In this document: in pieces, positions 41,660 through 59,651 of the stretch | Layout of the letters: each line of letters opens with the position of its first letter | How positions within the stretch are numbered: position 1 is the stretch's first letter | The notes under the pieces: generated by a model | The model's database searches: none | What the model saw: the letters and a program-made list of their open reading frames with translations, nothing else | Told to the model about the DNA's origin: nothing | Source: a virus | Reading direction: 5' to 3' (one strand) | Length of the DNA: 64,000 bases | IMG/VR virus record: IMGVR_UViG_3300009105_000002 | Span: 31,320-95,319 of that record | Program-made: the position numbers and the translations under genes

Positions 41660-42454
41660 TTACTTTTGTTTTAAACGACATACATAAATCCTACCCCTTG
41701 CAAACAACGCCGGAAACTTATCGGCTATAAACCGCCAAAAGGTGTCCGGTATTTTCTTGGCTATCTTGCCGATCCACTCTCCACGACTTTTGTGCATATC
41801 CGTTGAGATATAACTGCCTTCCTCCACGATCTTGAAATACTCGCTTATGAACCGGCGTTGTTGCCGGATCGTCGGAAAATGAACGTGCTTATAATCCTTG
41901 AACGCTTGGGCGTCGCACCCTATCCCTATCGCCATAACTATCCGGTGATAAAGGGTATTTTCATTAGGTAAACTGAAACAGATCACGCCGTCTTTCGCAA
42001 GGGATAACTGAAATGCTTTCATAATCGCCGTGGGATATAGGATATGCTCTACGATTTCCAAAGCGAAAATCAAATCGTATTTTTTATCCAAAAACTCCAA
42101 TTTATAATTAGGAAATTGGTTTAAATCTATCCTAATAATATCCTCGTGTTTTTCGAGCATATCAATGCCGGTGTAAGAACAATAGTTAGGCAAGTGATTA
42201 CGCACTTCCATAGTGTAACACCCCACATCTAAAACGTGAGGATTATGCCCTTCGTATAAACTATATGCCATAACAACAGCTCTATGAACCCTCAACCTTG
42301 AATATTTGTCGGAATTATACATATCGCCCCACGGTCTAATAGGGTTATTTTTTAACATATTATAAAGTTTTAAATGTTTCTCGTGATTTTCGTTAATGCG
42401 TCCACTTTTTTGGGGAGTATTTCCTTTCCGTTTTCGGTCTTTGGGAACGCGCAT
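41660..42454 (-). CDS. Class I SAM-dependent methyltransferase
   Basis: VLDVGC, YDLI...EIVEHI..P, G....SLPN, H.HF. Confidence 0.85.
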   Translation of the reverse strand: MRVPKDRKRKGNTPQKSGRINENHEKHLKLYNMLKNNPIRPWGDMYNSDKYSRLRVHRAVVMAYSLYEGHNPHVLDVGCYTMEVRNHLPNYCSYTGIDMLEKHEDIIRIDLNQFPNYKLEFLDKKYDLIFALEIVEHILYPTAIMKAFQLSLAKDGVICFSLPNENTLYHRIVMAIGIGCDAQAFKDYKHVHFPTIRQQRRFISEYFKIVEEGSYISTDMHKSRGEWIGKIAKKIPDTFWRFIADKFPALFARGRIYVCRLKQK

Positions 42455-42711
42455 ATGCCTCCTTACATTTTTTATTACAGAATATATCCTCTTTCAAATT
42501 GCCCTTTCGTATGAACAAGCCACAACCGGAACAAAATATATCCTCGCCGTTAGTGCTCATATCTACTTCGGCTGAATTTTTATATTCATTGTTTTATCCT
42601 GCCAATCAATAGTTATTTCTCTAAAATCACCCCACCCATCTAAAAAATTACTTACCTCTAACATAATTTCTCTCATTGCTGTTAATGGTATTTGATTTCT
42701 AATAGTTTTTT

Positions 42712-43689
42712 TCATCGCCCCGCCCTTCCCTGTTTTACATAGGTCATAAACCTATTAAAGTAATAACTGAAACGTGTGGCTCGAAAGATATATGGAAGTA
42801 TGTCCTTGTCTTTTTTAAGGCGTATAAAGCGATTTATATGTGACTTTTTCCAAAGTATTAAAGGAAAGTGCCTAAAAATATAATAAAGCCCTTGGAAAGT
42901 AAAGCCGGCTTTAATAAATTCGCCCTTTAAAACGAAGATAAAGGCCACCATTGTCCATACCAACAGGTGTTTTGGGAGGATCCACGCCAAGTTATGCCAC
43001 TCCAAATTCTTGATCAACATAGTAATATAGTTTTTACAACCGTGATAATGGATCGTGTGTTGCGAGTAGTATTGTTTCTTATCTTTTAAAGGCGTGTTGA
43101 AAGCGTGGTAAGCAATGGCTTTCGGCGCAAACCTAACCTCACGACCTAACAGCCATACCCTCCACGATAGGTCAGTTTCCTCGCCGAACATAAAGAAGTC
43201 GCTATCAAATCCTCCTACTTTTACAAATGTGTTACGCATAATCATGCAGGAGGCAGACTTCCCAGCGAGGATCCGCTTCTTATAATCAAATTGCCCTCTA
43301 TCCTCCACATTACCGGAACGCTCTATCAGAAATCCCCACGATCCGAGATAACTACCGGCGTCGTCAAACTTATTTGTGCCCATCGTGATAATCTTGGAAT
43401 AAACCATTACCGTATCCATATTGATAGCCAACCACATCTGTTTTAAACACTCCTTGTCCACTTCGGTATCATCATCAAAGAACGCGAGGTATTCGCCGGT
43501 AGCAAAGCACGCGCCTAAATTACGCTTAAACGCCGGCCCTCCGTGGTCGTGGATAACGCTGCACCCCTCAATGTGCAGATTTTCGTCGCTGACAATAATA
43601 ATCTCATATTCAACGCCGACAGATTTCCTAATACTCTTGACGCACTTATAGATAAAGTCGCCGGTGTGATGGCAGATGATACAACTTAT
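42712..43689 (-). CDS. GT2 glycosyltransferase (WbbL/rhamnosyltransferase-like) with an ATA start
   Basis: Frame stays open upstream of the called GTG: ISCIIC...RNLGA...GEYLAFFDDD; C-terminal VGGFD..FF..EETDLSWR. Confidence 0.8.
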   Translation of the reverse strand: MSCIICHHTGDFIYKCVKSIRKSVGVEYEIIIVSDENLHIEGCSVIHDHGGPAFKRNLGACFATGEYLAFFDDDTEVDKECLKQMWLAINMDTVMVYSKIITMGTNKFDDAGSYLGSWGFLIERSGNVEDRGQFDYKKRILAGKSASCMIMRNTFVKVGGFDSDFFMFGEETDLSWRVWLLGREVRFAPKAIAYHAFNTPLKDKKQYYSQHTIHYHGCKNYITMLIKNLEWHNLAWILPKHLLVWTMVAFIFVLKGEFIKAGFTFQGLYYIFRHFPLILWKKSHINRFIRLKKDKDILPYIFRATRFSYYFNRFMTYVKQGRAGR

Positions 43690-44081
43690 GATGTTGACCT
43701 CGCTTTCTTATGCGGACATATCCCATATCTCGCTTTCGCTAAATTACAGTTATTGCATAATACTTGATAACCCTTTGGATAATTATTCCTTTTTAACCAC
43801 GGATAAAATTCACTTGGAGGAACTACTTTTCTATGTTCTTTTCCGTCATTGTTTATGTGATCCATTGCCAAAAATTCAATTTGATGTTCTCCGCAACAGG
43901 CGCATGCTTCCCCATAAGCAGATATAACTTCCTCTCTTAATTTATGACGCCTTATTTTATCCATTTTTCTATGATGATCTCGAAGTTTTGCTACATATTT
44001 ATTTCGCCACTTTCGTTTCGCCTTAATGTTTTTATGATAATAATATCTTTGACGCACATTTTCTTCCTTTTTCGTTCTCAT
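43686..44081 (-). CDS. HNH endonuclease
   Basis: CACCG...DHI..DG..H...LC.NCN..K. Confidence 0.85.
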   Translation of the reverse strand: MRTKKEENVRQRYYYHKNIKAKRKWRNKYVAKLRDHHRKMDKIRRHKLREEVISAYGEACACCGEHQIEFLAMDHINNDGKEHRKVVPPSEFYPWLKRNNYPKGYQVLCNNCNLAKARYGICPHKKARSTS

Positions 44082-44470
44082 AAAACCAACGCCAAAATTG
44101 CCTGAAGTTTAGCCGGTGAAACCTCTACGCCTAACCTCTGTATCATATCAATATCCTTCTGCCTGTTATCAGGATCTAAACCTCCGCCTGTGCCTATCTT
44201 AATTATTCTGCGACCGGCTTCCGTCATAAAAACGATTATGCCTATCGGTCTGCCTTGATTGCCCTCTGTGAACCATTGCTGATGCAAGACTTTCATATAT
44301 CCTCCTTGTGATTTCCACCATACCCAATTAGATAGCCGTTCCCATACGCTTAATCCCTCCCAATCAAGCCAATCTATATAAAGGTGTCCGCACCGACGAC
44401 ATTGCGTAGGCCCCGATTTACCTACCCACCTATGCCCACATTTTTGACATTTATATTTGGCTAACGGCAT
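44078..44470 (-). CDS. Zinc-ribbon hypothetical protein
   Basis: CQKCGH.W...C..CG; internal RBS suggests possibly two genes. Confidence 0.45.
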   Translation of the reverse strand: MPLAKYKCQKCGHRWVGKSGPTQCRRCGHLYIDWLDWEGLSVWERLSNWVWWKSQGGYMKVLHQQWFTEGNQGRPIGIIVFMTEAGRRIIKIGTGGGLDPDNRQKDIDMIQRLGVEVSPAKLQAILALVL

Positions 44471-44979: not shown

Positions 44980-46056
44980 TCATTTTAACGCCCTCCTTAT
45001 TCCCTTATAAAGATACTTTATATCAGCAACGCTCCGGATACTGAATATCCTGTTAATCCAAAACCTCGGATCGTAGCCGACATTGTAAATTTTTCTAATG
45101 AACTTTTGAGCAGACATATAGGTATTTACCCCTTGTATATAAGCAGTTGTTTTACCGAAACGACGAGCACTCATCATAATTCTTTCCTTATCAAGTTTAG
45201 GATTATAGAAACTTGCCTGTGCCGTCTTGGCATATCCTTTCCTTAATAGATAATGAACAAGTTTCAAGGTCTTTATAGCGTCCTTATGGCTTTCCCACGG
45301 ATAACCGAACATCACGGCAATGTGGGGATCGAGCCCAGCTTTAGCACTACGCTTAATATAATCAATAGCACTGTAAATATTTACACCTTTATTTATCTTG
45401 TCCAATGTCGCTTGATTAGCACTCTCGAGCCCATACAGGATCATACGGAAGCCGGCACGCCTAATGTCTTTCAACCCCTTAAGGTTAGGGTGATTATAGT
45501 CCAAGCGCATATTGCACCCTATCCGAACTTTCTTATTCAAACCACTCTTAATCATTTCCTCACAGAACACCATAAGCCAAGCACCTTTCGGGAAAGTGCC
45601 GCTATCGTCAAATATTTCCTTAAACCCCATATCCACGCACTCTTGAACTTCGGCTATCATAGTCTTTACCGGCCTTGTGTAGCATTTAGGGTATTGTTTT
45701 GCCCAACGGCAAAAGGTGCATTTGCCATACCAACAATCTAATGAAGCTTGCATATAGGTAGCCGGCAGGTATTTAAAGTTGCCGTTCTCTTGGTATTTAG
45801 GATTAAAGGCGTTTGTAAACCTCCTATCCGGCGATGGTAATTCTAAAAATGGCACATCTATTTGAGTTTCACTTTCAATATTCTCAGCAAAATCACACTC
45901 TATTCTTTTTTCCGTCTTTTTCCAATCCCATAAGATTTCATGTCCTTTGTTTTTTAAATAAGTCGCATACATAGCCAACAGCACAGGGTATATCCATACC
46001 TTTTTCTCGTGTTGCCGTTGCTGACTATATTGATTGGGCTGAAATAATATTTTCAT
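44980..46056 (-). CDS. Radical SAM protein (Cx4Cx2C), reduced B12-binding-like N-terminus
   Basis: CWYGKCTFC, GLESANQ.TL..INKG, MFGYPWE. Confidence 0.85.
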   Translation of the reverse strand: MKILFQPNQYSQQRQHEKKVWIYPVLLAMYATYLKNKGHEILWDWKKTEKRIECDFAENIESETQIDVPFLELPSPDRRFTNAFNPKYQENGNFKYLPATYMQASLDCWYGKCTFCRWAKQYPKCYTRPVKTMIAEVQECVDMGFKEIFDDSGTFPKGAWLMVFCEEMIKSGLNKKVRIGCNMRLDYNHPNLKGLKDIRRAGFRMILYGLESANQATLDKINKGVNIYSAIDYIKRSAKAGLDPHIAVMFGYPWESHKDAIKTLKLVHYLLRKGYAKTAQASFYNPKLDKERIMMSARRFGKTTAYIQGVNTYMSAQKFIRKIYNVGYDPRFWINRIFSIRSVADIKYLYKGIRRALK

Positions 46057-46315: not shown

Positions 46316-46352
46316 ACTGCCTCAAGTTTATCGAGTAGTGCATAGGTCTCGC

Positions 46353-47519
46353 CTATGAACTCTTTTTCCGGAAGCACCCTTGATATCCTCCTGTTACGAT
46401 ATGGTGTATCTGTCCTTGCGCCGTCGGCCATTTGCCTGTATATTCCTTAAATGCCTCGCTTGGTTTGATCCACGGCTGCGTAAAAGGCCAGTAGGTAATA
46501 AGGTTTGAGTTTTCCAATAAGCATAAAGCCGTTATTCCAATTGCCCCCCACTGTATTGGAACAGAGAATTTGCTTATTCCAGAGATTGTAGTGAAGATTA
46601 GCCCTACCGTTACCATATGCCCCCAACGAGCCGGTATTCTGTGCATAAAAAACTGCCAAATTTCAAATATATAACGCCAAAATAGAAACATAGAGGCAAA
46701 TACAACCACAAGCCACCAATTACCTTTCCCCCAAAAACTGAACAACACGACAGGCGACATATAGAACGACATTTCCCAAAATCCCACGCCGTTGATATAG
46801 TGCCGGAAATTCATAGGCAGAAAGAAATCAAGCATTTTCCATTTAGGAACACAGCCGATCCTCATTTTACTTTGGGCGGTGGCCTCTCTCAAGACACTCC
46901 GAGAATAGCGTCTTCCCACTATGCAGAGGAAAGGGGAGGCTATTAAGAGGCCACAAATCGCCCCTAATGGGTTCATAAATACGAAGAAATAGGTAAAATA
47001 GATAGCTATGGGTAGGTAACCGGCTAAAAACGCCATAGAGAGGCAAATAGCGGGCAAAAACACTCCTTTAAAAGCCAATGCCCAAGGGATCCACGCCATT
47101 GTAGCCACTATCGGAGGGTAATGCTTGACCATATACCCCGAATAGCCAAACAATAGCCCTCCGATCAGCCCTAACGGCCCGCCCCCGAACAAGACATAGC
47201 CTCCGACACTCGCAACCAAAAAGTGGGACAAGAACACATACATTTGTAACGCAAACGCTTTATTTAATGATAACTTACGCATGACAATTGACAGGACAAT
47301 ATTGGGAGGATAACACACGCTTGACATAGCTGCGCCCATAATATCGTCTTGGTAGAAATAAGAATCACGGGGCAACTTGCCCTTACTCCAATACTCTCCG
47401 GCAAGCATTATATTAGGGAAGCACTCGCTTAAGACCTCGGCAGTAGCCAAGCGGAATGGATTTATAAGCTCCTTCCGGAAAAAAAACAACCAATATAAGA
47501 TTAAAAATATTATTTCCAT
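46353..47519 (-). CDS. YfhO-like GT-C membrane glycosyltransferase
   Basis: Many TM helices; G.LP...MG......YPP, H...A..G.Y, WIPW, R.PARW patterns. Confidence 0.6.
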   Translation of the reverse strand: MEIIFLILYWLFFFRKELINPFRLATAEVLSECFPNIMLAGEYWSKGKLPRDSYFYQDDIMGAAMSSVCYPPNIVLSIVMRKLSLNKAFALQMYVFLSHFLVASVGGYVLFGGGPLGLIGGLLFGYSGYMVKHYPPIVATMAWIPWALAFKGVFLPAICLSMAFLAGYLPIAIYFTYFFVFMNPLGAICGLLIASPFLCIVGRRYSRSVLREATAQSKMRIGCVPKWKMLDFFLPMNFRHYINGVGFWEMSFYMSPVVLFSFWGKGNWWLVVVFASMFLFWRYIFEIWQFFMHRIPARWGHMVTVGLIFTTISGISKFSVPIQWGAIGITALCLLENSNLITYWPFTQPWIKPSEAFKEYTGKWPTAQGQIHHIVTGGYQGCFRKKSS

Positions 47520-47755
47520 TTTTATTATACTAAGCCAAAGGGAGCTCTCGATTAATCGCCTCATAGACTTCCATAAGCCACCTTTTTTCCCATGTAGACC
47601 AATAAGGCTCCCCAGTGTTAGTTTTCCCTGTTGGCTTCAACTTAAGTAATTTAGATATTTCATCCCTATACCAGTTCATTGTTTTGGGTTTCTCTGTTAC
47701 GCGAGAATTGCAATACGGACAATAATCTTTTGCCTCACTCATAAATCCTCCTTCT

Positions 47756-48559
47756 TCATTTCTTTTGCCATTTGAACCACATATCCGGATAAGTTTGCCA
47801 ACAATTACAATTTGAGCAGATACCCTCTGTTATGCCCTTTAACTGCTGACACCTTAAACTTTTCATTTTTGCCGAAGTCCACGCTTCGCTTAAACCCATA
47901 TCCTTTATATTGCCGAGTTTTGTTTTGTGGTGTGGATCATTACAGCAAATAAGGATATCTCCGTTCCAAGCAATGGCGGGGGCAAGCCAAAGATGGTAAC
48001 AGGGATACCACTCCCTCGAAGTGCCATGGCCTTCTCCTTTGACATTGCCTCCGTAATTATGATAAGGTTTCCTTTCAACACGCCAACCTTTTGGGATATG
48101 GTAATCTTTAAAACACCTCAAGGTGATCTTATACCTCCACTCCTCTTTTGTTTCAAGGTTAAGGCCGGGGCGATATGTAATTATAATATGGTCAACAGCG
48201 TCAAATACAGCAGGCGTATTGATCGTTCCGTTGGTAGTTAATATAACATTATGCTTATTAAATTTAAGTATATCTATTTTTGTTAATAGTTCCTCGTCAA
48301 GCAAGGGTTCTCCGAATAGGTGTAAAGATATGCTCCTCGACTTATGCCTGTCCAGATCGTCCACCGTCCTCATGAAAGTGCGGACATCCATATCCTCCTC
48401 TATCTTGGGGCGAGGACACATCTCACAGGACAGATTACATTTTGTGGTCGTCTCTATGTGGATATGGCGTGGGTATTTGTCTATATACAACTGCGCGCCT
48501 ATCTTGTATATCCACGACGGTAATCGCTTAAGCAAGAGGGTGTGGTTAAAGGGGTTCAT
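47756..48559 (-). CDS. Radical SAM protein with SPASM/twitch domain
   Basis: CNLSCEMC, GEPLL, TTNG; C-terminal C...W...G....CC.D...GN...C..C. Confidence 0.9.
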   Translation of the reverse strand: MNPFNHTLLLKRLPSWIYKIGAQLYIDKYPRHIHIETTTKCNLSCEMCPRPKIEEDMDVRTFMRTVDDLDRHKSRSISLHLFGEPLLDEELLTKIDILKFNKHNVILTTNGTINTPAVFDAVDHIIITYRPGLNLETKEEWRYKITLRCFKDYHIPKGWRVERKPYHNYGGNVKGEGHGTSREWYPCYHLWLAPAIAWNGDILICCNDPHHKTKLGNIKDMGLSEAWTSAKMKSLRCQQLKGITEGICSNCNCWQTYPDMWFKWQKK

Positions 48560-48827: not shown

Positions 48828-50171
48828 TCATTTTATCAACTCCAATCCTGCATGAATATACCGTTTCAACTGTTTATAACTCCTCACTCCTCGAACTTTA
48901 TTCCATATTGATCTTGGGTGGAGATAATGTGCTTTATAAATTTTAGAAATAATTCCTCTAAGGTCTTCTCTGCTGAGATATTCATTCCAAACAGGAGGTT
49001 GGAAATCTTGAGTCGGTCGTAAGGCGAACTCTTGCCATACGTCCTTATCATTTCTCTCACACCAGTCGGCGAAAGATTTTGTTGCAGGGAATGGAGTAAA
49101 GATGGTGAACTGTGTAAAATCAGGATCGAGTCTTTTAGAAAATAGACAACTTTCATTGATGTCCTCCTTTGTTTCGCCGGGATTGCCAATCATAAAATAA
49201 GCAAATGTCTTAATATCTGCCTCTTTAGCCCATTTAAAAGCGTTATTGACTTGCTCTAATGTAATGCCTTTATTGAGATTATCTATTACCCTTTGAACGC
49301 CACTTTCTACGCCGAAATGTATGCGATTACAACCGGCGTTTGCCATAGCACACAACATTATTTCATCTACGGTATCTACTCTTGCCCTAACGTCCCATTT
49401 AACCTTAAGGTTTCTACGGACAATTTCAGAACAAATATCAAATACCCTTTCCCTGTCCACCGTAAATGTATCATCATAGAAAAGGATTTCCTTAATCTCT
49501 TGTTGAACACACTCCTCCATTTCGTCCACTACATTTTCAGGGCTTCTCGCCCTAAACTTCTTGCCCATAGCAGGGCGATCACAGAAATTACATTGGTAAG
49601 GGCAACCTCTGGAGGAAAACATAGTTGTCATTGGCTCGGGAGTTAGAATAGAATAGTATTTGTCGTTATGAGTTCGATAAGGGAAAGGTATAAGGTCAAG
49701 ATTGTCCGTAGACGAGCCTTTAAATAATATCGAATAAGGCTCTAAAATAGCCGTTGCCATTGCTTTTTCACCCTCACCTATTACTATTTTATCAGCTCCT
49801 AATCTTGCTGTTTCGTCTGGATATATGGTAGCGTGAGGCCCTCCGACGACAATTTCCGTGTCCGGAGAAACCTCCTTGATAAGCATAATGGTCATTTTTA
49901 GATCCATAAGCCCTAATGTAATTGAAGTTATCCCTATAACATCAAACTGCTTATTAGATAGATAGATTGCTAAATTCACATAATCAACCCTCAACGCTTG
50001 GCAATCCAACAACTCTACCTTGTGTTTGGTATATTTTTTAAGATAACTTGCTATATACATCAAGCCCAACGGTGGATAAAACCCTCCGTGTCTTTTAAGG
50101 ATAGGCGGATCGTTCCCCTCTATCTCGTTCTCATTAGGAATATTTAAGAGTAAAACATTAAGAGGTCTCAT
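48828..50171 (-). CDS. Cobalamin-dependent (class B) radical SAM methyltransferase
   Basis: YPPLGL.YIAS, GGPHAT, GEGE, SRGCPYQCNFC, GVESG. Confidence 0.9.
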   Translation of the reverse strand: MRPLNVLLLNIPNENEIEGNDPPILKRHGGFYPPLGLMYIASYLKKYTKHKVELLDCQALRVDYVNLAIYLSNKQFDVIGITSITLGLMDLKMTIMLIKEVSPDTEIVVGGPHATIYPDETARLGADKIVIGEGEKAMATAILEPYSILFKGSSTDNLDLIPFPYRTHNDKYYSILTPEPMTTMFSSRGCPYQCNFCDRPAMGKKFRARSPENVVDEMEECVQQEIKEILFYDDTFTVDRERVFDICSEIVRRNLKVKWDVRARVDTVDEIMLCAMANAGCNRIHFGVESGVQRVIDNLNKGITLEQVNNAFKWAKEADIKTFAYFMIGNPGETKEDINESCLFSKRLDPDFTQFTIFTPFPATKSFADWCERNDKDVWQEFALRPTQDFQPPVWNEYLSREDLRGIISKIYKAHYLHPRSIWNKVRGVRSYKQLKRYIHAGLELIK

Positions 50172-50406: not shown

Positions 50407-50408
50407 AA

Positions 50409-50897
50409 TTAGGAATATTTAGCAACAAGACGCTTAAAGGTCTCATAAGCCCTTTCAGGTTGTGAATACCATAGTTTACAGAATAGCGACGGTGCTTTTG
50501 TCTTTGGCTTTACTATATCAAAGGGGTGCATATAAAAAATATCTCGTATCGGTTGTCCATACCACATATGGCGAAGTAAAGAAGTATGATTTTGAGGGGA
50601 GGAGTAGGGTAAATGTTGAGGTAAGATAACCGCAAATTTATGAAATCTAACAGGTTTATTGTCCAAGCCCGAAGTAAAATTATCCTTTGGGTGATATCCA
50701 ATTTTATGTCCATGGTTCTCAATGGTTTCCCTCACGCCGTCGTAATAATGAGGGAATAAAAAGAAGATGCCCTTAACCCCATATTCTTTAAACACATCTA
50801 ATATCATAGGAACACCCTCACACATGCCTTCATTTCCGTTTGTTCGCCAACCCCAATCCGGCTCTACGTCGACTGTCCAAATAACTTTCTTTTCCAT
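50409..50897 (-). CDS. Polysaccharide deacetylase-like (CE4/NodB fold), short
   Basis: TVDVE.DW, GH.IG.H, YMHP.D. Confidence 0.7.
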   Translation of the reverse strand: MEKKVIWTVDVEPDWGWRTNGNEGMCEGVPMILDVFKEYGVKGIFFLFPHYYDGVRETIENHGHKIGYHPKDNFTSGLDNKPVRFHKFAVILPQHLPYSSPQNHTSLLRHMWYGQPIRDIFYMHPFDIVKPKTKAPSLFCKLWYSQPERAYETFKRLVAKYS

Positions 50898-51550
50898 TTC
50901 CTTACCGTCCTTGTTCGCAATGCAAACCCTATCCTCGTAATATAATAAAGCGTGATTAAGCCGTGTTTTATCGTCCTGACCTTACTCTTGCCCTGTATCC
51001 GCTTCTGAACCTTTATAGGCATCCACTCAACTTTATATCCATCTATGAGGAACATCAGCGTAAGCGTGGTCGTAAAGGAATATGTATCGCACAGGATAGA
51101 CATATAACTCATAGCCAATTCACGCCGGAATATCCTCAAGCCCGAGTTTAAATCCATTAGCCATCTATTAGCCCAACAGGACGCTATTAAGCTAAGCCCT
51201 TTCCTGCCGAAGTATCGCATTAGGCTGACTTCCGTGATCTTCCGGACGCCTACTATCATATCCGTTTCTATTAGGTTAAAATAAAGCCACAATCTTATGA
51301 CATCTTCTACCAAGTGCTGACCGTCGCCGTCCATAGTGAGAATGTAATCCCTCGTAGCAAGCCGTATCCCTGTCTTGAGTGCCGCACCATACCCCATATT
51401 CTTTTCGTGCCGGATAGTCGCCTCCGGTATAGGCACATCTGATCCGTCGTCAACGATAATGACCTCTATATTGTAGAGTTCAAACTCCTTAATTGCGTCA
51501 GCGACTTTAAATTCGTTAAAACAGGGAATTACGACAGATAAATTAGCCAT
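50864..51550 (-). CDS. GT2, Dpm1/polyprenol-phosphate glycosyltransferase-like
   Basis: VVIPCFNE, VDDGS, N.GYG.A, MDGDGQH, D..SG.R, R..G.SK. Confidence 0.9.
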   Translation of the reverse strand: MANLSVVIPCFNEFKVADAIKEFELYNIEVIIVDDGSDVPIPEATIRHEKNMGYGAALKTGIRLATRDYILTMDGDGQHLVEDVIRLWLYFNLIETDMIVGVRKITEVSLMRYFGRKGLSLIASCWANRWLMDLNSGLRIFRRELAMSYMSILCDTYSFTTTLTLMFLIDGYKVEWMPIKVQKRIQGKSKVRTIKHGLITLYYITRIGFALRTRTVRKWKRKLFGQST

Positions 51551-52799
51551 AAATATTTTTGATAAACGCCAATGCTTTTCGCCATTTAAAAGTTCTGTCT
51601 ATTTTTTGGACGTCCTGCATTACTTTTTTAAAATCTTTTTTATCCACGCTTAATAATAAAGGATAATCCGTATAATGAGAAAGTTGACTCCAAGAAGGCA
51701 CCCCTGTCAATTTACCCCACCACTCTGTTCCCGGAAAAGGCGTCGCCACAAAAGCCCACAACCTCTGGACGCCTTGTTTGATAGCCCACTTCATAAAGCC
51801 TATTGTTTTTTGCATATCCTCAATGGTTTCATTGGGGTTTCCAAATATCACGCTGCCCTGAACTTTTAGACCATGCTTATGGCAAATCTTGATAGCTTTT
51901 TTATTATCCCCTACTGTGCATGTATCTCGTTTTAGGTATCTCAAGGTCTTGTCGCTTCCTGACTCAAAGCCAAAAATACAGGTCGTTACACCCATACCTT
52001 TTAAAATTCCGCATAATTCGTCGTCTATAAGGTCAGTTCTCGGTTGGCAGTTAAATTTCATACCGGGCCTTGGGATAATTTGCTTCAAACGCTTTCTGTT
52101 GATAGTGAACAAATCATCCCATATCTGCACGAGGTTTACACCTTTTACCCATAAGTCGTTTATCATCATATTTACATATTGCGCAGAGTGAAATCTTGGC
52201 TCTCCCCACATCTTTTTCGTGCTGCAAAAAACACAATTATAAGGGCAACCTCTGGAAGTTATCATCACGCCTGATATACCAAATTCAGCAAAAGTTGTAT
52301 TGGCTTTTTCCTTGAAGTAGCGAGGATCTACCAAAGACCAGTCAGGGCGAGGAAGGTCGTCAAGGTTTTCTATTGGTTCATGTTGCCATATAGATTTAGC
52401 AACTCTATTAATTTTAAGTGTCTTTACAAGTTCAACAAAAGCCAATTCACCCTCTCCTATTACTGCATAATCAAATGCTGTCTGATCAAAGCTTTCTATC
52501 CAATCAGAAGTAGATATATGGACACCACCTATAACTATCAGAGGGGCATTTTTCTTTAGTTTTATCTGTTTGCCTAATTTTATCGCTTCTCCGTAATGCA
52601 CCGTCATAGCAGATATTCCCACAACATCAAATTTAGAATATCCTCCCTCAAACATCATATAGTTTTTAGTGTCGTCCCAATTAGCGTCTATAATCTCCAC
52701 TTCCACGTCTAAATGCTCTTTAAGGTAAGTCGCAAGATAGACAAGTCCAATTGGTGGACAACCACTTCCTTTGGCAAGAGAAATTAGGGCTATTTTCAT
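51543..52799 (-). CDS. Cobalamin-dependent (class B) radical SAM methyltransferase
   Basis: PPIGL.YLA, GGVH, GEGE, TSRGCPYNCVFC, GFESGS. Confidence 0.9.
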   Translation of the reverse strand: MKIALISLAKGSGCPPIGLVYLATYLKEHLDVEVEIIDANWDDTKNYMMFEGGYSKFDVVGISAMTVHYGEAIKLGKQIKLKKNAPLIVIGGVHISTSDWIESFDQTAFDYAVIGEGELAFVELVKTLKINRVAKSIWQHEPIENLDDLPRPDWSLVDPRYFKEKANTTFAEFGISGVMITSRGCPYNCVFCSTKKMWGEPRFHSAQYVNMMINDLWVKGVNLVQIWDDLFTINRKRLKQIIPRPGMKFNCQPRTDLIDDELCGILKGMGVTTCIFGFESGSDKTLRYLKRDTCTVGDNKKAIKICHKHGLKVQGSVIFGNPNETIEDMQKTIGFMKWAIKQGVQRLWAFVATPFPGTEWWGKLTGVPSWSQLSHYTDYPLLLSVDKKDFKKVMQDVQKIDRTFKWRKALAFIKNIYG

Positions 52800-52941
52800 A
52801 ATTCAGCTTTTAATCTTTCTATCTCCTCGTTTAATTGCTTTTCCACTTCATCCCTTTCTTCCATAAGAAGACAAAGCGGACATTCGTTACCCTCGTAGCA
52901 AATTTCGTCGTGGCTATTATACCTACTTCCTGAACATAAAT

Positions 52942-53349
52942 TCATACTCTCCTCCTAAAAATATAAAGTCCGTTAAGCCCGAACATAAAAGGGCGGTAGA
53001 AAGCAAGATAAAACCCCCCGTCTTTAAAAGCCCCTTCTACCCTTTCTTTAGGAAAACCTCTAAAAACATTGCGACAGGTAATAATAATTTGTCCATCTTC
53101 TTTAAGGTAATCCTTAAAATGTAAACCCCACCAATTTTGCTCGTCTTCTGTCATATAATTTAAGGAGGCAACGAGAGTGATTGTGTCATATTTGTTTTTT
53201 AAGGGCACCCCTTCATTTTTTTCGCACCCTATGCCATTGCCATATTTCTTAACCAATTTATTGTTTCCACACCCTATATCTAACAATCGACCGCGAATAT
53301 GAGGCATTACAGTTTTAATACGTAGCCATTGAAACATACAATCCTCCAA
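52942..53349 (-). CDS. Minimal class I SAM methyltransferase
   Basis: GRLLDIGCG, YDTIT, L...G..II. Confidence 0.7.
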   Translation of the reverse strand: MEDCMFQWLRIKTVMPHIRGRLLDIGCGNNKLVKKYGNGIGCEKNEGVPLKNKYDTITLVASLNYMTEDEQNWWGLHFKDYLKEDGQIIITCRNVFRGFPKERVEGAFKDGGFYLAFYRPFMFGLNGLYIFRRRV

Positions 53350-53569: not shown

Positions 53570-53909
53570 ATCCCCTCCAACTTTCTGGACTCCAAGTCAT
53601 TAGTTTAAACTTTAATAAACCTGTTTTAATCGCCTCGTGAAACTTTATTACCATTTTTGATAAATAAGCACAGGCTTCTATGAAATCATTAAAAGGAACA
53701 CCTATGTGCCAACTATCACAGCTACCACCACTATCAGACCATTCGTAACCTAATTCTTTGATATATTCTTTTACATTGGTAGGTAAGTTACCTCTTTCGC
53801 CTATAAACTTTTCAAGATTTTCGTGTGTAATATCATTACCTACAAGGTTTTCCATCTTTTCTTCTGACGCTTTTTGTTCACCAACAACATCACACATCCA
53901 TTTACTCAT
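53562..53909 (-). CDS. Hypothetical protein
   Basis: RBS GGGAGG before MSKWM. Confidence 0.45.
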   Translation of the reverse strand: MSKWMCDVVGEQKASEEKMENLVGNDITHENLEKFIGERGNLPTNVKEYIKELGYEWSDSGGSCDSWHIGVPFNDFIEACAYLSKMVIKFHEAIKTGLLKFKLMTWSPESWRGYD

Positions 53910-54181
53910 ACGCCCTCCCCTATTGCCAAACAATCGCACTCTTTCACTAAAATCGTATTTTCTTCTCGCTCAAAATCCTGATAACTAAACCTGCCGAAGA
54001 TTACACGCCTACCTACCTTGATATCCTCATCCTTGACTTTAGGGCCAACAGCAAGTATTTCGCCTCTATCTTGAACCTTATAGTGGCTTCCTGCAAACCG
54101 TTCAGGCAGATGAATAAGCCCGACCTTGTTTTCAGGTAAAGGATCACGCTTGATCAAGACATTATCGTTTAGGATTTTCAT
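53906..54181 (-). CDS. GroES/Cpn10-like co-chaperonin
   Basis: MK.L.D.VLI, GLI.LP, GEILAVG, IKVG..V.F. Confidence 0.85.
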   Translation of the reverse strand: MKILNDNVLIKRDPLPENKVGLIHLPERFAGSHYKVQDRGEILAVGPKVKDEDIKVGRRVIFGRFSYQDFEREENTILVKECDCLAIGEGV

Positions 54182-54389
54182 TATCTTTCTTCCACTCCTC
54201 TCCTTGGTCTAAATCTTCTTCCATTTTGTCTATCAATTTTTCAGTTTTTTGTGTCAAACCTGCGATTGCCATTTGTCGCCATAGAAAATGCCTCATTAAA
54301 CAAGTAATATCCATTTCTAGTATAGTTTGCAGGCAAGAAATGGTTTTATTAGGATTGTCCTTGCGATATTCGCATTTAGAGCATTTCAT
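54162..54389 (-). CDS. Cys-containing hypothetical protein
   Basis: MKCSKC; RBS GGAAGG. Confidence 0.45.
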   Translation of the reverse strand: MKCSKCEYRKDNPNKTISCLQTILEMDITCLMRHFLWRQMAIAGLTQKTEKLIDKMEEDLDQGEEWKKDNENPKR

Positions 54390-55147
54390 TTTATCCTTCC
54401 TTTCCACCATAAATACCTCCCGTAAAGCCTTTTATAAAGCTCTAATTGCCAACATTGTTCTAAATGCTTGTCAGAAAATCTTACATAATTGCGGTATCTG
54501 TGGGAAGTGTCTAACCGATCCTTGTATGCGCCGGCCTGCGTAGGCATGTGAAATAGCCAACAAAGAGGGTGAAACAAAAGTTCTCCATAAAGCCGGCAAC
54601 GCATAGCCATATCCACCTCGCTCCATTCAGAAGTTTTTTCATAAGATAAGTCGAATCCGCCTGCTTTTTCTATCACTTCTCGCCTCAAAGCCATATTGCA
54701 ACATTCCAAATAATCCACAAAACCCCAATATTCCTTACTAAAATTAGAAAACATGCTTGGTGCACCCCATTTAGAAAAGTATCCCGGGCGTTCAGATTTA
54801 TTGAATAGTTTATACAGCGAAAAGAACCTAAAAATATCCCTGTTCTGCTTATGCCGTTCAGGAACAAGTGTCGGGCCTGTTACACCAACAACCCTTGAAT
54901 TAACCATAAAAGCTCTCATAATGTTTTCAAGCCAACAAGGAGGACAATCTACGTCATCGTCGATAAAAACTATGATTTCTCCAACCGACTGCCTCCAACC
55001 GTATTCCCTACACTTCGCTAAATCCCAATCCTTATCCACAACAATAGCCTCAAAGTCCTGAAACATCTGTTGTTTTAAAGAGAGTTGGCATTTATAAAGT
55101 TCGTCCGGACGCCCCTTGCTACACACAACCACACTTGCTTTAGGCAT
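54386..55147 (-). CDS. GT2 glycosyltransferase
   Basis: SVVVC, VFIDDD, NMA.RR...GGFD, SEVD...R. Confidence 0.9.
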   Translation of the reverse strand: MPKASVVVCSKGRPDELYKCQLSLKQQMFQDFEAIVVDKDWDLAKCREYGWRQSVGEIIVFIDDDVDCPPCWLENIMRAFMVNSRVVGVTGPTLVPERHKQNRDIFRFFSLYKLFNKSERPGYFSKWGAPSMFSNFSKEYWGFVDYLECCNMALRREVIEKAGGFDLSYEKTSEWSEVDMAMRCRLYGELLFHPLCWLFHMPTQAGAYKDRLDTSHRYRNYVRFSDKHLEQCWQLELYKRLYGRYLWWKGRIK

Positions 55148-55983
55148 AATGCACCATAAACCCAAACCGTTATAAAACAAATTATAGGGTGGAGAAACCA
55201 AGCTCTATCTTTTATTTTTAAATACCCCCAGCAGCCTCTCAATAGTGGCTCTATCCATGTGATACTCAAAACAACAAACAAAAGTAGTTTTAATACATCT
55301 TTTGTGTTTCCTACCATGTGCCATCTTCGGTTTTTTCCGAGACTTTCCGCGTAATGAAACCTTTTTTTTATCCATAACCATAGCGAGTCTCCTGTCTGAT
55401 GATGGACTGGATAAGTCAATAATGCATAATGATAATAGCCCATCCTTCTTAAATCTTCGCAATTATCTATGTGAGAATAGTGCTCTAAATCTGTTTTCAT
55501 AATCAAATCTCTGCGAATAAAAAATCCATTATCCCCTAATGTATCAACGCTTTTTTTGAAGAAATTTATTCTATGAATTATTTGTTTTTTATAATAAGGG
55601 AATCTATCGCATTTACTTAAATAGAAAGGCACGGGATCATTGCAACCAAATAATGCAAAATAACGATTTAAAATAGGATCAAATTGGATATATTCATAGT
55701 GGAACGAATAAGCCCCAATAGCATACGAGCCATCAAGTAGTTGTTCAGCTTCTTTAAATGAGTTTTTATGCAAAAATTCACAATCACTCGCCATAAAACA
55801 CACTATCTCACCTGTTGCTTTTTTCAAGCCAATAGCTTTAGCAGACTCAGGAGTGCCTTCGGTAATTACCAAGACTTCTACTAAATCTTTCGGATAGTCT
55901 TGCGTTTCGATAGACCGAAGACACTCCTTGAGTTTTGGATCGTCATTAGATTTGCTTGCGATGATGATACTAATTTTTTTCAA
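55075..55983 (-). CDS. GT2 glycosyltransferase with C-terminal TM helices (degenerate DxD)
   Basis: ISIII, L.SI..QDYP, G...ATGE..CFMASD; TTG start after GGGAG. Confidence 0.8.
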   Translation of the reverse strand: MKKISIIIASKSNDDPKLKECLRSIETQDYPKDLVEVLVITEGTPESAKAIGLKKATGEIVCFMASDCEFLHKNSFKEAEQLLDGSYAIGAYSFHYEYIQFDPILNRYFALFGCNDPVPFYLSKCDRFPYYKKQIIHRINFFKKSVDTLGDNGFFIRRDLIMKTDLEHYSHIDNCEDLRRMGYYHYALLTYPVHHQTGDSLWLWIKKRFHYAESLGKNRRWHMVGNTKDVLKLLLFVVLSITWIEPLLRGCWGYLKIKDRAWFLHPIICFITVWVYGALCLKQVWLCVARGVRTNFINANSL

Positions 55984-56290: not shown

Positions 56291-56326
56291 ATCTCCTCCT
56301 CGTTGGGCTATGGCGCAACGCCACAG

Positions 56327-57289
56327 CTAATCCGCCTCCACCATTTTTTTAACCATTTCTGCAAAGCCCATTTTCGGAAACCAATTTAATTCTTCGCCAG
56401 CTTTTGTCGCATCACCCTTAAGGCAATCTACTTCCGCAGGGCGCTTAAATTTATCGCTTATTCTGGTATGTTTTTCCCAATCTACAATTCCAATACATCT
56501 AAAAGCGACTTCTATAAAGTTTTCTACAGAATTAGCGGTTCCTGTTGCAAACACATAATCATCTGCAATATCTTGTTGTAGCGTTTTCCAAAAACCCTTC
56601 ACATAATCCGGCGCATAGCCCCAATCTCTTTTAGCGTCGATATTGCCAAGGACGAGTTGACTTTTTATTTCTCCGTGCGTAAGGAGCTCTCTTTTCATCT
56701 GAGCAACTGTCTTGCTAATTTTCCTTGAGACAAATTCTTCGCCACGCCTTTCTGACTCATGATTAAACGATATCCCACAACATATAAACAGGTTGTAAGC
56801 TTCTCTATAATTAACCATTACCCTATGAGCAAAACACTTCGCGCAGCCATAAGGTGAGCGGGGATAAAATGGGGTGGTTTCCTTTTGAGGCGTTTCTTTG
56901 ACCTTGCCGAACATTTCGCTTGAAGAAGCATGAAAGACCTTGCTATCTTTAGAAGACTGTCTTACTGCCTCTATGAGCCTCAAAGCACCCAAACCTGTAA
57001 CGTCGGCAGTATATACCGGCTCGTCAAAAGAGAATTTGACAAAACTCTGTGCTGCAAGATTATATACCTCGTCAGGCTTTATAAGGGCAAGGTTCTTACG
57101 CAAGCTTTCAGATCTCGTTATATCCCCGCTTACAAGCTCGATCCTATTAAGGATATGTCGGATCCTCCATAAAGAAGGCGTTGAGTGCCTTCTTATAAGT
57201 CCATACACCTTATAATCCTTTTCTACTAACAGATCTGCCAAATGTGATCCGTCCATACCAGTAATGCCTGTGATAAAAGCTATCTTCAT
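56327..57289 (-). CDS. gmd: GDP-mannose 4,6-dehydratase
   Basis: ITGITG.DGS.LA, PDEVYNLAAQS.V..SF, ASSSEMFG, PFYPRSPYG.AK, NHES.RRG..FV.RKI, RDWG.A.DYV, RPAEV. Confidence 0.95.
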   Translation of the reverse strand: MKIAFITGITGMDGSHLADLLVEKDYKVYGLIRRHSTPSLWRIRHILNRIELVSGDITRSESLRKNLALIKPDEVYNLAAQSFVKFSFDEPVYTADVTGLGALRLIEAVRQSSKDSKVFHASSSEMFGKVKETPQKETTPFYPRSPYGCAKCFAHRVMVNYREAYNLFICCGISFNHESERRGEEFVSRKISKTVAQMKRELLTHGEIKSQLVLGNIDAKRDWGYAPDYVKGFWKTLQQDIADDYVFATGTANSVENFIEVAFRCIGIVDWEKHTRISDKFKRPAEVDCLKGDATKAGEELNWFPKMGFAEMVKKMVEAD

Positions 57290-57733
57290 CTATTTACCTC
57301 CATTAAGTTCTTTAGCGATAGCAGATGCAATTGCTTCTTTACATTGTTCTATTTGTTCTCCGTCTAGAGTGATAATATGGCCTTCAAAAGAGGCGACACA
57401 TTGATAAGCTAATCGTTCCATTACCTTCTCATCAACCCTCGGTGCGGAGAATTTAAGAGTTCCAATAGCCTCTCTAGCCATATCAAAACCCTGTCTTATA
57501 AAAGAATTATACTTTTCATCAAGGCTATCTTTAGGGAAATTTGGTAAATCTTTTACTAATTTATATTTGGGTGCAGAGAATTTACTGACTATGGCTTGGG
57601 CAATATCCCTACTACCTAAACATCGTTCTATGCTGCATACATTTTCTAATATAATTTCTTCTACCTTCTCCACATCTAAACCCTGTCTACCACACTTATC
57701 GCATTTCCCTGTCTTCATAGTTACCTCACTCAC
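57290..57733 (-). CDS. Hypothetical phage protein with an internal KFSAP repeat
   Basis: ORF in operon. Confidence 0.45.
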   Translation of the reverse strand: MSEVTMKTGKCDKCGRQGLDVEKVEEIILENVCSIERCLGSRDIAQAIVSKFSAPKYKLVKDLPNFPKDSLDEKYNSFIRQGFDMAREAIGTLKFSAPRVDEKVMERLAYQCVASFEGHIITLDGEQIEQCKEAIASAIAKELNGGK

Positions 57734-58116
57734 TTTAAGGTCGGATTATTGGGCATTGCGTCCTCTTTATGTAAATCCGGATTACGTGAATCAAACGCCT
57801 TTGAATAGCCGACCAATAGTTTTGAGAAACTTGCCGCATTGGTTATCGTATGAATATCCATAGGTTCAACCACAAAAACTTCCCCCTCAACAAACCGCGT
57901 CGTAACGCTGGCAACCGCATTTACCCTCTTGATATAAACGTCAACCTCTCCGTCTAAAACATAAAAATACTCGTATTTGTTTTTATGGTAATGATTTCCC
58001 CACGGCTCTTTGTTCGCCATTTCTAAGATGTTGATTTGCTTGAGCCTTGTTGTAAAGAGTTGGAGGAGCCTGCCTCTTGAGTCTTCCCGAACAAGTTCAA
58101 TTCGTTTTCTGCGCAT
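57730..58116 (-). CDS. Cupin, NDP-sugar isomerase/epimerase-like (WxcM/FdtA/RmlC type)
   Basis: D.RG.L, GNHYH....EYFYV..G, P...H. Confidence 0.75.
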   Translation of the reverse strand: MRRKRIELVREDSRGRLLQLFTTRLKQINILEMANKEPWGNHYHKNKYEYFYVLDGEVDVYIKRVNAVASVTTRFVEGEVFVVEPMDIHTITNAASFSKLLVGYSKAFDSRNPDLHKEDAMPNNPTLK

Positions 58117-59651
58117 GATTTTATCTCCTTATCAAGTAAATTTAAGTCTTTTTGAATCATGTCCTTAAACACGTTTGATTGTAAAGTGTCTTCATAAAAC
58201 GGTGTTTTTGTTTGTTCGGCAAGTGTTCGGATAAGGTAGATTCTCGCCTCATACAGCTTCATTTGGGATTTCAGCATTAAAAGTTGATTGTAAAAAGCTA
58301 CCTCCTTATCAAAACCTCTTAATTCTCCTTCCCACCTTTTTCTGAAATGGCTTACCGGCGACTGAATTGCTTTTACAAGGTTATCCCGCGCCATACCCCA
58401 TTGCTTCTGTGCTCTTAAAACCGAATAGAGGTTGTAATAAGGGACATCATATTGTGGGTTGATCCTCGTAGCGACATTCCACATATCTACGGCGGATCCA
58501 GTTAACCCACACTTCATATAGGTTGCCCCGAGATTTGCTAATGCTACTTCGGATCGTGGGAAGTTCCATACGTTAGACTGGTAAAAAGTAATCTCGTTCT
58601 GATATGCCGGTAGTTGCTGCCACGTCCTCATTAGGTAAAGACCTATTACGAAAGCCAAGGCCACGGGATAAGGCGCGAGGAATTTCGCCATGATTATCCA
58701 TAGCCCTATGCTTGCGATATATACATACCTTTCCGCAACAAACTGGTGAATTGTGATCCAATTGAGGTAAATCCAAAGAAAAGCAAAATACCATACTATT
58801 CCAAACCTCACTACGCTATCACCGAAATAAAATAAGCACCCAAACCCTATTAGGAGCAAAACCCCGAGCCAAAAGCGATTATTCTCTTTTTCTAAAACAG
58901 GAGTATAATGAAAGCCCCACACATGGTAAAGCCCCATATTCGACGGAAAAAGCGCTAATTTTGTATAATAAAGGAGGCTTTTTGTCGCCACAATGATTTT
59001 TCGCCAACTCAATTTTGTTGAATTCCCCATACCTTGCGACTCAAAAGTATCCGTCCTTAAATTTATAGTATGCCTCACGATCTGAAAACCCATGGCCAAG
59101 GAAAGAAGTGCGCCTAAAATAATATACGAATAATGACCGAGCCATAATGTTATTACAAAAGTGGCAAGCATTGTAAAATTGCCTATGATCGCCAATGCAA
59201 GGAAGATAGCATAGAGAATTATGGAAATTCCCCAAGCGTCCGGAATGCCTAATGTCGGAATCTGCAAGGCCACTAAAGCCATAAAAAGCCCTACAATATA
59301 CCCTATTCCAGAAACCCAGCCTACTGTTTGAGCACCTAACGGCGTTACTGCGAACAAAAGACAGGTAATCCACGCCAAATGCTCTCCTATTATGTTCCTT
59401 AAGAAAAAATAAAGCATGACACAGGCGGCGTTCTTTAGGATCACGTTAAAACAATGATGATGTCGAGGGTTTTTATCGGCTACCTTAAAGCGCAGGTGTT
59501 TAAAATAATCGCCATAATAAGCATTTGCCGGCAGTTTACCGTCATACCGCACTATGCCTTCCATATCGTCAATTACAAAACCTCCCTTCCAAACAATATA
59601 CGAATAAGTCAGCCATACAAGCGCTGTAATAGATATGATATGCAAGATCAT
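58023..59651 (-). CDS. TMTC-like GT-C membrane glycosyltransferase with C-terminal TPRs
   Basis: FVIDD in the first loop, H..NV.L, LFA..P....V.W, AERY.Y..S.G, then TPR-like ALANLG..Y...G....A. Confidence 0.8.
   Translation of the reverse strand: MILHIISITALVWLTYSYIVWKGGFVIDDMEGIVRYDGKLPANAYYGDYFKHLRFKVADKNPRHHHCFNVILKNAACVMLYFFLRNIIGEHLAWITCLLFAVTPLGAQTVGWVSGIGYIVGLFMALVALQIPTLGIPDAWGISIILYAIFLALAIIGNFTMLATFVITLWLGHYSYIILGALLSLAMGFQIVRHTINLRTDTFESQGMGNSTKLSWRKIIVATKSLLYYTKLALFPSNMGLYHVWGFHYTPVLEKENNRFWLGVLLLIGFGCLFYFGDSVVRFGIVWYFAFLWIYLNWITIHQFVAERYVYIASIGLWIIMAKFLAPYPVALAFVIGLYLMRTWQQLPAYQNEITFYQSNVWNFPRSEVALANLGATYMKCGLTGSAVDMWNVATRINPQYDVPYYNLYSVLRAQKQWGMARDNLVKAIQSPVSHFRKRWEGELRGFDKEVAFYNQLLMLKSQMKLYEARIYLIRTLAEQTKTPFYEDTLQSNVFKDMIQKDLNLLDKEIKSCAENELNLFGKTQEAGSSNSLQQGSSKSTS

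Follow-up and report, generated by a model that had tools for sequence, protein, structure and literature searches.

What does a phage gain from about 15 enzymes that probably make, alter and transfer sugars? The question is raised by IMG/VR virus record IMGVR_UViG_3300009105_000002 (95,319 bp), of which we analysed the last 64 kb (record positions 31,320 to 95,319, 64,000 nucleotides, hereafter the window). From window position 59,651 down to 41,660 all sizeable open reading frames (ORFs) are on the minus strand and frequently overlap their neighbours. This glycosylation block comprises ~15 enzymes over 15-18 kb. An original prediction, made from the letters of the sequence, had described it as a phage-domesticated cluster of glycosylation and radical S-adenosylmethionine (SAM) methylation genes, building a methylated deoxysugar glycan for remodelling of the host surface and/or decoration of the virion. 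Domain searches found all the gene classes it had listed, each in its place, on the minus strand and mostly in overlapping ORFs (Table 1). Sequence comparisons place the block in the core genome of a phage lineage, and we lean, by a little, towards the view that it encodes an expanded gtr/Arn-like, lipid-linked system which remodels the host envelope.

Conservation of the block in a phage lineage

Relatives of the block were found by an alignment-based scan of IMG/VR, whereas IMG/VR scans with single proteins found almost nothing. Thirteen IMG/VR contigs (34-58 kb) carry the gene of the GT-C glycosyltransferase (GT) with C-terminal tetratricopeptide repeats (GT-C/TPR) at 32-42% identity, and a metagenome scan added 108 further relatives. 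Syntenic clusters, which the original prediction had proposed to look for elsewhere, were present in at least 30 viral or metagenomic contigs from several sites, all of the same phage lineage: gene content and order are repeated there, with identities of 25-57%. All loci of sufficient length show the order TMTC-(cupin-Gmd)-GT2-GT2-(GroES)-Dpm1-(CE4)-rSAM(s)-SPASM-GT-C, where TMTC denotes the GT-C/TPR gene and rSAM a radical SAM gene; it was observed in the 13 contigs of IMG/VR and in 18 loci from metagenomes, each at least 11 kb long (a few of these are the same records).

The terminase is common to all ten relatives tested (45-53% identity). By pairwise identity the terminase and the block genes fall into the same three sub-clades, and the terminase and block genes co-diverge (Mantel r 0.27-0.50, p 0.055-0.004, ten genomes only). 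Four complete relatives share with the record only the structural module (window 20654-37466) and the glycosylation block; sharing does not extend to the RecT/RepO region, to a 2354-aa protein or to the record's first 42 kb.

Outside the lineage the block has no close counterpart. Neither the block (megablast) nor the GT-C/TPR protein (tblastn) matched anything among 50,697 deposited phages, and the terminase had only matches of at most 25% identity in the same set. The best matches of Gmd, the GDP-mannose 4,6-dehydratase (71-73%), come from the contigs on which the closest relatives in the lineage are found; among cellular homologues the named ones reach 55-59% and come from mixed phyla, including two Patescibacteria metagenome-assembled genomes. 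Among 185,579 species genomes the best relative of the GT-C/TPR protein is 21-25% identical. A near-identical host locus was looked for and none was found, with Gmd below 60% outside the lineage. The groundwater virome literature mentions gmd/rmd and glycosyltransferase genes of Patescibacteria phages in general terms, and no description of the module was found in it.

These results bear on the possibility that the phage picked up a surface-glycan locus of a host by chance and carries it, without any role for itself, as passive or decaying cargo. Such cargo would account for three damaged-looking genes (the CE4 motif, a truncated methyltransferase and a GT2 without a start codon, described below) and for the insertion of an HNH-like gene. 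It does not account for the same genes and order at 25-57% identity in so many contigs from several sites, for the co-divergence with the terminase or for the catalytic motifs (Cys cluster, DxD, invariant GT-C residues), which are largely kept and speak against a catalytically dead block. No close cellular homologue was found, and the block forms no compositional island. We regard chance capture as highly improbable and largely refuted. On these sequence comparisons the block is core genome of a phage lineage and not recent host cargo, in agreement with its original description as phage-borne and domesticated.

The block had been put at about a third of the genome. This holds for a phage unit of ~52.4 kb (34%) and fails for the 95,319-bp record (19%). 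A 21-bp dif-like repeat occurs at record positions 459-479 and 42,738-42,770 (window 11419-11451), and a third, partial copy (right half) at ~95,130 (window ~63,810), ~190 bp before the record end; the site at 42,738 is a hybrid between the two flanking ones. The repeats bound a unit of ~52.4 kb, which matches the genome size of the relatives. This arrangement fits a record made of two elements integrated in tandem, the second of them ~52.4 kb long. The dif-like site was not found in the four relatives examined, and the integration may be particular to this genome. The relatives of 48-58 kb, several of which are rated complete or have terminal repeats (three of them at 52-53 kb), also fit the one-third share; in G007 and G003 the homologous block takes up ~15 kb of 52-53 kb.

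Many of the relatives' contigs are named after the Hainich groundwater wells H14, H41, H43 and H51, mostly from the 0.1-µm fraction; these wells are also named in PMC12960796. The enrichment in this fraction could reflect ultra-small hosts or, equally, trapped virions. The absence of tRNA genes deprived us of a host clue from that side, and the Atlas clusters of the capsid protein are labelled only 'Viruses'.

A lipid-phosphate sugar synthase and two GT-C membrane enzymes

The Dpm1-like GT2 is the gene from which a donor for reactions outside the cytoplasm would come. Its profile, built with ten orthologues, matched ArnC (1.4e-14), archaeal DPMS (1.7e-12) and GtrB (3e-9); PHROG 841 'GtrB-like O-antigen conversion' was matched with E 5e-16, and the PpgS, AglJ and ArnC models weakly. 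The two C-terminal transmembrane (TM) helices of GtrB are missing. The DGD motif is near-universal, with D74 and D76 invariant in the 11-sequence alignment and DAD in two relatives. On these matches the gene belongs to the polyprenyl-phosphate glycosyltransferases of ArnC/DPMS/GtrB type.

The gene next to it codes for a homologue of CE4 deacetylases. Taken alone, the window protein stays below the Pfam cutoff; a profile of five sequences matched PdaA (1e-9), PgdA-type enzymes (~1e-8) and ~30 further CE4 chains. Wherever the CE4-like gene occurs, the order is Dpm1-like, CE4-like, type A radical SAM, without exception. We take the first two genes to reproduce the ArnC-ArnD arrangement, and the succession of GT2, deacetylase and B12-domain radical SAM recalls HpnI-HpnK-HpnJ.

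Neither of the two membrane proteins originally called 'GT-C-like' matches any Pfam, NCBIfam or PHROG family. Since sequence models gave nothing, the claim was tested with AlphaFold (AF2) models and exhaustive structural comparison. The model of the GT-C/TPR protein had a mean pLDDT (predicted local distance difference test) of 91.4. Its residues 1-366 aligned with Pmt1/2 (Z 16.8, 307 residues), followed by STT3 (16.6), Pmt4 (16.5), ALG12 (16.0), PglB (15.6), AglB (15.5) and ArnT (14.9); the nine best structural matches other than TPR proteins were all GT-C. The remainder of the chain, after residue 366, consists of TPRs and matches TPR proteins of the PDB. The alignment to the whole membrane domain of PMT suggests that the TPR array is extracytoplasmic. 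In an alignment of 40 sequences the invariant residues include D28 and D29, an acidic pair just past TM1 in the first outer loop, and E307-R308-Y309. Among the neighbours in the ESM Atlas, taken as a lead only, are bacterial PMT_2 and GT-C+TPR clusters (TM-score 0.85-0.88), with TMTC_DUF1736 at rank 27. The protein does not match the PMT, PMT_2 or TMTC_DUF1736 models of Pfam, so sequence models do not place it in these families; among 40 homologues one matches PMT_2 (4e-5) and none DUF1736. Its confident model predicts a GT-C fold glycosyltransferase of PMT/TMTC-like architecture. It has 137 metagenomic homologues; all close ones are on contigs of at most 56 kb, and the closest, 64-74% identical, on contigs of 22.8 and 49.9 kb.

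The second membrane protein, the minimal GT-C (388/403 aa), is rare: only 74 representative clusters were found among 1.84 billion proteins. Its model (pLDDT 94.0) gave GT-C structures as the top 20 matches (Z 16.5 to 6.1), which cover residues 1-388. The best were AglB (16.5), STT3 (16.4), AftA (15.3) and ArnT (15.0), and the next, unrelated match had a Z of only 3.8. This confident model predicts a GT-C fold glycosyltransferase of a rare family. The TPR tail apart, the two models matched GT-C structures only (Z up to 16.8 and 16.5), which bears out the original assignment. By analogy both enzymes may use a polyprenyl-phosphate-linked donor; it is the co-encoded donor synthase alone that speaks for this. 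With a synthase of ArnC/DPMS/GtrB type and two GT-C models, the logic foreseen for the block, a lipid-phosphate sugar donor serving GT-C enzymes outside the cytoplasm, stood up well.

The same two enzymes are the main difficulty for virion glycosylation, in which cytoplasmic GT2s, methyltransferases and tailoring enzymes would decorate the capsid or tail and the GT-C enzymes would serve an exported virion or lysis component. Virions are glycosylated in some actinophages and chloroviruses. Here the block is conserved alongside the structural module as lineage core and co-diverges with the terminase, GroES lies inside it, and an unrelated neighbouring phage in the record has GTs among its head-tail genes; all this would suit decoration of the virion. 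Yet tailed virions assemble in the cytoplasm, while GT-C donors are, as family knowledge has it, lipid-linked and on the outer face. No structural protein is interleaved with the block, and a plus-strand block (RadC, endolysin) separates it from the structural operon. We consider virion glycosylation unlikely; of the virion decoration that had been proposed, the part resting on the two GT-C enzymes does not fit, and the cytoplasmic GT2s remain compatible with it.

DNA as the acceptor fits still less well. The GTs, methyltransferases and radical SAM enzymes would in that case build a glycosylated or alkylated base against restriction; phages are known to glycosylate DNA (bioRxiv 10.1101/2023.12.21.572611), and one of the proteins of this phage (2354 aa) has a DNA methyltransferase domain. 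Such hypermodification leaves no place for two GT-C membrane enzymes and a polyprenyl-phosphate GT, and no hydroxymethylase, TET/JBP, dNMP kinase or deazaguanine gene was seen in the block. We think it most improbable.

Radical SAM enzymes and methyltransferases

The block encodes four radical SAM enzymes: type A, type B, a SPASM enzyme and a CX4CX2C enzyme. Types A and B combine PF02310 with PF04055, and their CX3CX2C motif is conserved among orthologues. The best PDB match of type A was AprD4 (6e-25), and its top NCBIfam model was HpnJ, with 170 bits against a cutoff of 577. Type B matched best 9CCB (QCMT, 3e-12), with AprD4 at 2e-8; its orthologues (50-52% identity) are confined to one sub-clade. 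The SPASM enzyme had BtrN as best PDB match (2.8e-9) and keeps its CX3CX2C motif in 15/15 orthologues. For the CX4CX2C enzyme the motif CW[WY]G[KR]CxFC is kept in three of four orthologues (40-46% identical); QCMT is its best PDB match (3e-5), and the B12-radical SAM families match weakly and over the core only. No NCBIfam model reaches its cutoff for any radical SAM enzyme of the block.

Of the nearest solved relatives, BtrN is an aminocyclitol dehydrogenase and QCMT a protein glutamine C-methylase. AprD4 is a sugar diol-dehydratase that binds no cobalamin (PMC12931638). With these relatives the B12-domain enzymes cannot be called methylases, and the 'radical-SAM methylation' of the original prediction goes too far. 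Methylation by radical SAM enzymes of the block is possible on sequence grounds, as are cobalamin binding and methyl transfer by types A and B. We favour radical SAM tailoring of sugars, because AprD4 and BtrN act on amino-sugars or aminocyclitols.

Could the operon house two functions, GTs that remodel the envelope and four radical SAM enzymes that modify a protein or peptide, by C-methylation or in the manner of ribosomally synthesized and post-translationally modified peptides (RiPPs)? QCMT is the best solved relative of two of the four, RiPP maturase models (ApyD, rSAM_ocin_1, PapB, WgkB) match the radical SAM enzymes weakly, and many small ORFs are interleaved in the block. The stronger PDB matches are sugar-tailoring enzymes, however, and in all cases the type A and SPASM genes have the lipid-sugar synthase/CE4 pair on one side and a GT-C on the other. 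The small ORFs are unconserved among the relatives, two of them with weak matches only; the RiPP reading was set aside because they offer no conserved candidate precursor. We judge the split into two functions quite unlikely.

The class I methyltransferase with the Methyltransf_23 match has orthologues, 38-40% identical, in G003, G004 and G007. In one relative (L015:18152-20704) the type A gene is an 850-aa ORF with an in-frame insert of ~360 aa that carries a LAGLIDADG domain. The insert lies just before the CX3CX2C motif and looks like an intein.

Nucleotide-sugar branch and further GT2 genes

By its sequence Gmd is a clear case: PF16363 was matched with E 7.5e-115 over residues 5-316, TIGR01472 with 393.6 bits, slightly under the cutoff of 415, and the catalytic motifs SSE and YxxxK are present. 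The cupin matched PF14667 (2.7e-10) and Cupin_2 (2e-7). Its metal-binding residues H42, H44, E49 and H89 (His-x-His...Glu...His) are invariant in nine orthologues, and its profile matched small cupins (~1e-11) and, over the full length, Cap5F (1e-5; C-terminal cupin of Cap5F/WbcJ type). Gmd is absent in six of the 13 IMG/VR relatives and the cupin in five, so the deoxysugar branch is accessory. The 'methylated deoxysugar glycan' of the original prediction is not supported as it was worded: neither methylation nor a deoxysugar is established.

Two of the three further GT2s are lineage core, found in 13/13 IMG/VR relatives. One is the soluble GT2; the other (35-47% identity), with TM helices at residues 248-266 and 281-299, has a profile that matches GT-A GT2 structures (~1e-7). 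The third had been listed as 42712-43461. Its frame is actually open from 43698 and gives a full-length protein with an FFDDD motif; orthologues of 318-324 aa align by tblastn across 43692-42736. Several relatives have GroES at the same position, after the soluble GT2 and before the Dpm1-like gene.

Table 1. Features of the glycosylation block in window coordinates
Feature	Position	Strand	Evidence and remarks
GT-C with C-terminal TPR	58023-59651	-	542 aa; predicted structure
Small cupin, CapF/WbcJ C-terminal type	57730-58116	-	PF14667, Cupin_2
Gmd (GDP-mannose 4,6-dehydratase)	56327-57289	-	PF16363, TIGR01472
GT2 with two C-terminal TM helices	55075-56037	-	PF00535 E 3.5e-5
Soluble GT2	54386-55201	-	PF00535 E 1.5e-10; DDD motif
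GroES-type co-chaperonin	53906-54181	-	Cpn10 E 2.5e-9
Shortened class I methyltransferase, possibly degraded	52942-53349	-	GCG motif only, Pfam E 0.037
B12-binding-domain radical SAM, type B	51543-52799	-	B12-binding E 3.8e-17, Radical_SAM E 1.6e-18
Dpm1/ArnC/GtrB-type polyprenyl-phosphate GT2	50864-51550	-	PF00535 E 1.3e-18
CE4-like deacetylase homologue	50409-50897	-	Polysacc_deac_1 E 0.003 alone
B12-binding-domain radical SAM, type A	48828-50171	-	Radical_SAM E 9e-27, B12-binding E 9e-20
Short SPASM/twitch radical SAM	47756-48559	-	SPASM (PF13186) E 8.6e-12, Radical_SAM (PF04055) E 1.2e-6
Minimal GT-C, rare family	46353-47564	-	predicted structure; gene caller start 47519, 388 aa
CX4CX2C radical SAM, B12-rSAM-like core	44980-46056	-	Radical_SAM E 9e-12
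HNH-endonuclease-like ORF	43686-44081	-	Cys pairs, H-N-N motif read from sequence
Full-length GT2 with C-terminal TM segment	42712-43698	-	PF00535 E 1e-11 from residue 6
Class I SAM methyltransferase	41660-42454	-	Methyltransf_23 E 1.6e-13

A proposed pathway of envelope remodelling

The lipid-linked system that we lean towards can be set out as a series of steps. The genes, their folds and motifs, and their conservation and divergence together with the phage core genes are shown; which sugars and acceptors are involved, in what order the steps run and what the phage gains are inferred. The Dpm1/ArnC-type GT2, working on the cytoplasmic face, would load a sugar, probably an N-acetyl-hexosamine, onto polyprenyl phosphate. 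Like ArnD, the adjacent CE4-like enzyme would de-N-acylate this lipid-linked sugar, which would next be tailored by the B12-domain and SPASM radical SAM enzymes and by the class I methyltransferase(s), through deoxygenation, oxidation, rearrangement or C-/O-methylation. GDP-4-keto-6-deoxyhexose from Gmd and the cupin would feed an optional side branch. The three other GT2s, two of them membrane-anchored, could make more lipid-linked donors or extend a host-primed lipid-linked glycan. Flipping would be left to a host function, since neither a flippase nor a priming transferase is encoded in the block. The two GT-C enzymes would then transfer the sugars at the outer face of the membrane, the TPR-bearing PMT/TMTC-like enzyme probably to envelope proteins and the minimal 388-aa enzyme to a glycan, lipid or protein. 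The surface of the infected or lysogenic cell would thereby be rewritten; the most likely benefit is receptor masking against superinfection and loss of progeny.

Several observations weigh against this pathway. The block contains no GtrA/ArnEF-type flippase and no priming phosphoglycosyltransferase. Its sole small membrane ORF has one TM helix, and there is no small multi-TM ORF; the system would thus depend on host functions. No reductase or aminotransferase follows Gmd. The QCMT-like matches mean that the substrates of the radical SAM enzymes could be proteins. In addition, the block is not a separate moron: it lies downstream of RecT and RepO within a single run of co-oriented genes, a placement that suits expression in the lytic cycle better than classical lysogenic conversion. 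As it continues directly from the replication genes, we expect the block to be expressed in the lytic cycle also. A scan for promoters and terminators did no better than on shuffled sequence, so the expression timing given here is read from gene orientation only.

The state of this particular copy is a further point on the same side. In the CE4-like gene of the window GHKIGYHP is followed by a deletion, where relatives have GHEIGSHGHFH; the second His of HxxxH is lost by the deletion, and SHGHFH is kept in four relatives. With 135 aa the shortened methyltransferase looks like what remains of a Methyltransf_11 protein, 206 aa long in its orthologue (L074:16252-16872, E 6e-11). Of the 'two class I methyltransferases' originally reported, one therefore stands (Methyltransf_23) and the other looks degraded. 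The third GT2 lacks a canonical start codon (ATG, GTG or TTG), and the first codons of its frame overlap with the stop of the HNH-like ORF. That ORF has no Pfam match; one 32% identical to it occurs at a different place in L005, and it is likely to be a selfish insertion at the 5' end of the GT2. Either translation of the GT2 restarts at a rare codon (ATC/ATA), or the gene is being lost. With a CE4 metal ligand lost, a methyltransferase reduced to a remnant and a GT2 without a start, part of the pathway may be decaying in this genome.

A bolder version of envelope remodelling can be formulated, in which the block is an indispensable portion of the core genome of these tailed phages and forms a self-contained periplasmic protein-glycosylation machine. 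Its parts would be a PMT/TMTC-like GT-C whose TPR domain recognises the substrate, a second GT-C family peculiar to phages, a lipid-sugar donor synthase serving the two, and radical SAM enzymes that make an unusual amino- or deoxy-sugar on the lipid carrier; during infection it would rewrite the host surface proteome, possibly in ultra-small groundwater bacteria. We find it doubtful. If true, it would be the first viral GT-C-type protein O-glycosylation and the first radical-SAM tailoring of lipid-linked sugars.

Known phage surface-conversion modules are dispensable accessories of about three genes; here 15-18 kb are kept as faithfully as capsid genes. Such retention implies a central, unexplored role of envelope remodelling in the life cycle of the lineage. 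Three things in the block are of wider use: a new GT-C family confined to contigs of phage size, a PMT/TMTC-like enzyme encoded by a virus and related to widespread, uncharacterised bacterial proteins, and compact enzymes in which new radical-SAM chemistry on lipid-linked sugars may be sought.

Other features of the record

Outside the window, in the unrelated phage-like half of the record, a glycan cassette lies among head-tail genes (G000:C1:21076-27463, or L120:577-6964). It encodes two methyltransferases, a polysaccharide pyruvyl transferase, a GT4-type transferase and a 775-aa double-GT2 protein with TPR. Two different phages stacked in one host thus both invest in glycan genes.

In the window, the 2354-aa ORF (12878-19942) lies downstream of the tail genes and has its DNA methyltransferase domain at residues 981-1216; it is mostly unshared with the relatives, a 34% match being found in G004 only. 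A stretch of ~2 kb (38000-39900), with the terminase side at one end and the plus-strand RadC/endolysin block at the other, contains no convincing ORF. The candidate endolysin (40926-41474) has a zinc-ribbon-like N-terminal segment, a signal-anchor-like hydrophobic stretch and a weak SleB-type hydrolase domain; no spanin-like lipoprotein was noticed near it.

Comparison with known systems

Viruses other than this phage also combine a nucleotide-sugar enzyme of their own with several GTs, as in the glycan machineries of mycobacteriophages and of chlorovirus PBCV-1, which has its own Gmd. To our knowledge the viral systems that glycosylate virions use soluble or cytoplasmic GTs, and none has a GT-C, a lipid-phosphate donor synthase or a radical SAM enzyme.

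The PMT and TMTC enzymes are GT-Cs with luminal accessory domains, which in TMTC are TPRs. The GT-C/TPR protein resembles them in its GT-C core, in the acidic pair of the first loop and in the C-terminal TPR array, with Pmt1/2 and Pmt4 among its top structural matches. It differs from them in falling outside the PMT, PMT_2 and DUF1736 models of Pfam and in having no MIR domain.

For the radical SAM enzymes the nearest parallels are those of aminoglycoside and hopanoid pathways, which supply the best solved relatives (AprD4, BtrN) and the top NCBIfam model of type A (HpnJ). The enzymes of the block score far under the family cutoffs, and their substrates are presumably lipid-linked sugars rather than aminoglycosides or hopanoids.

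In the Arn pathway of lipid A modification, the GT2 ArnC, the CE4-type deformylase ArnD, the flippase ArnE/F and the GT-C ArnT act together. ArnC is the best solved relative of the donor synthase, a CE4-family gene follows directly, and both GT-Cs have ArnT among their top matches by structure (Z 14.9 and 15.0). Unlike the Arn pathway, the block has no ArnA/ArnB-type enzymes and no ArnE/F, the identities in the structural alignments are only 8-12%, and radical SAM tailoring is added.

The three-component systems consist of a GtrB-type GT2, a GtrA flippase and a GT-C (PMC4728340, PMC11127046). Like gtrABC, the block is phage-borne and combines a polyprenyl-phosphate sugar synthase of the GtrB/DPMS/ArnC family with GT-Cs of the outer face. 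It differs in having no GtrA-type flippase and in having two GT-Cs, sequence-unrelated to known GtrC families; against the three genes of gtrABC stand ~15 enzymes over 15-18 kb, four of them radical SAM enzymes. Nor is it a moron beside an attachment site, being placed in the core genome, in a replication-side operon. Judged by its genes, the module is a much enlarged variant of the three-component principle, possibly with new radical-SAM sugar chemistry.

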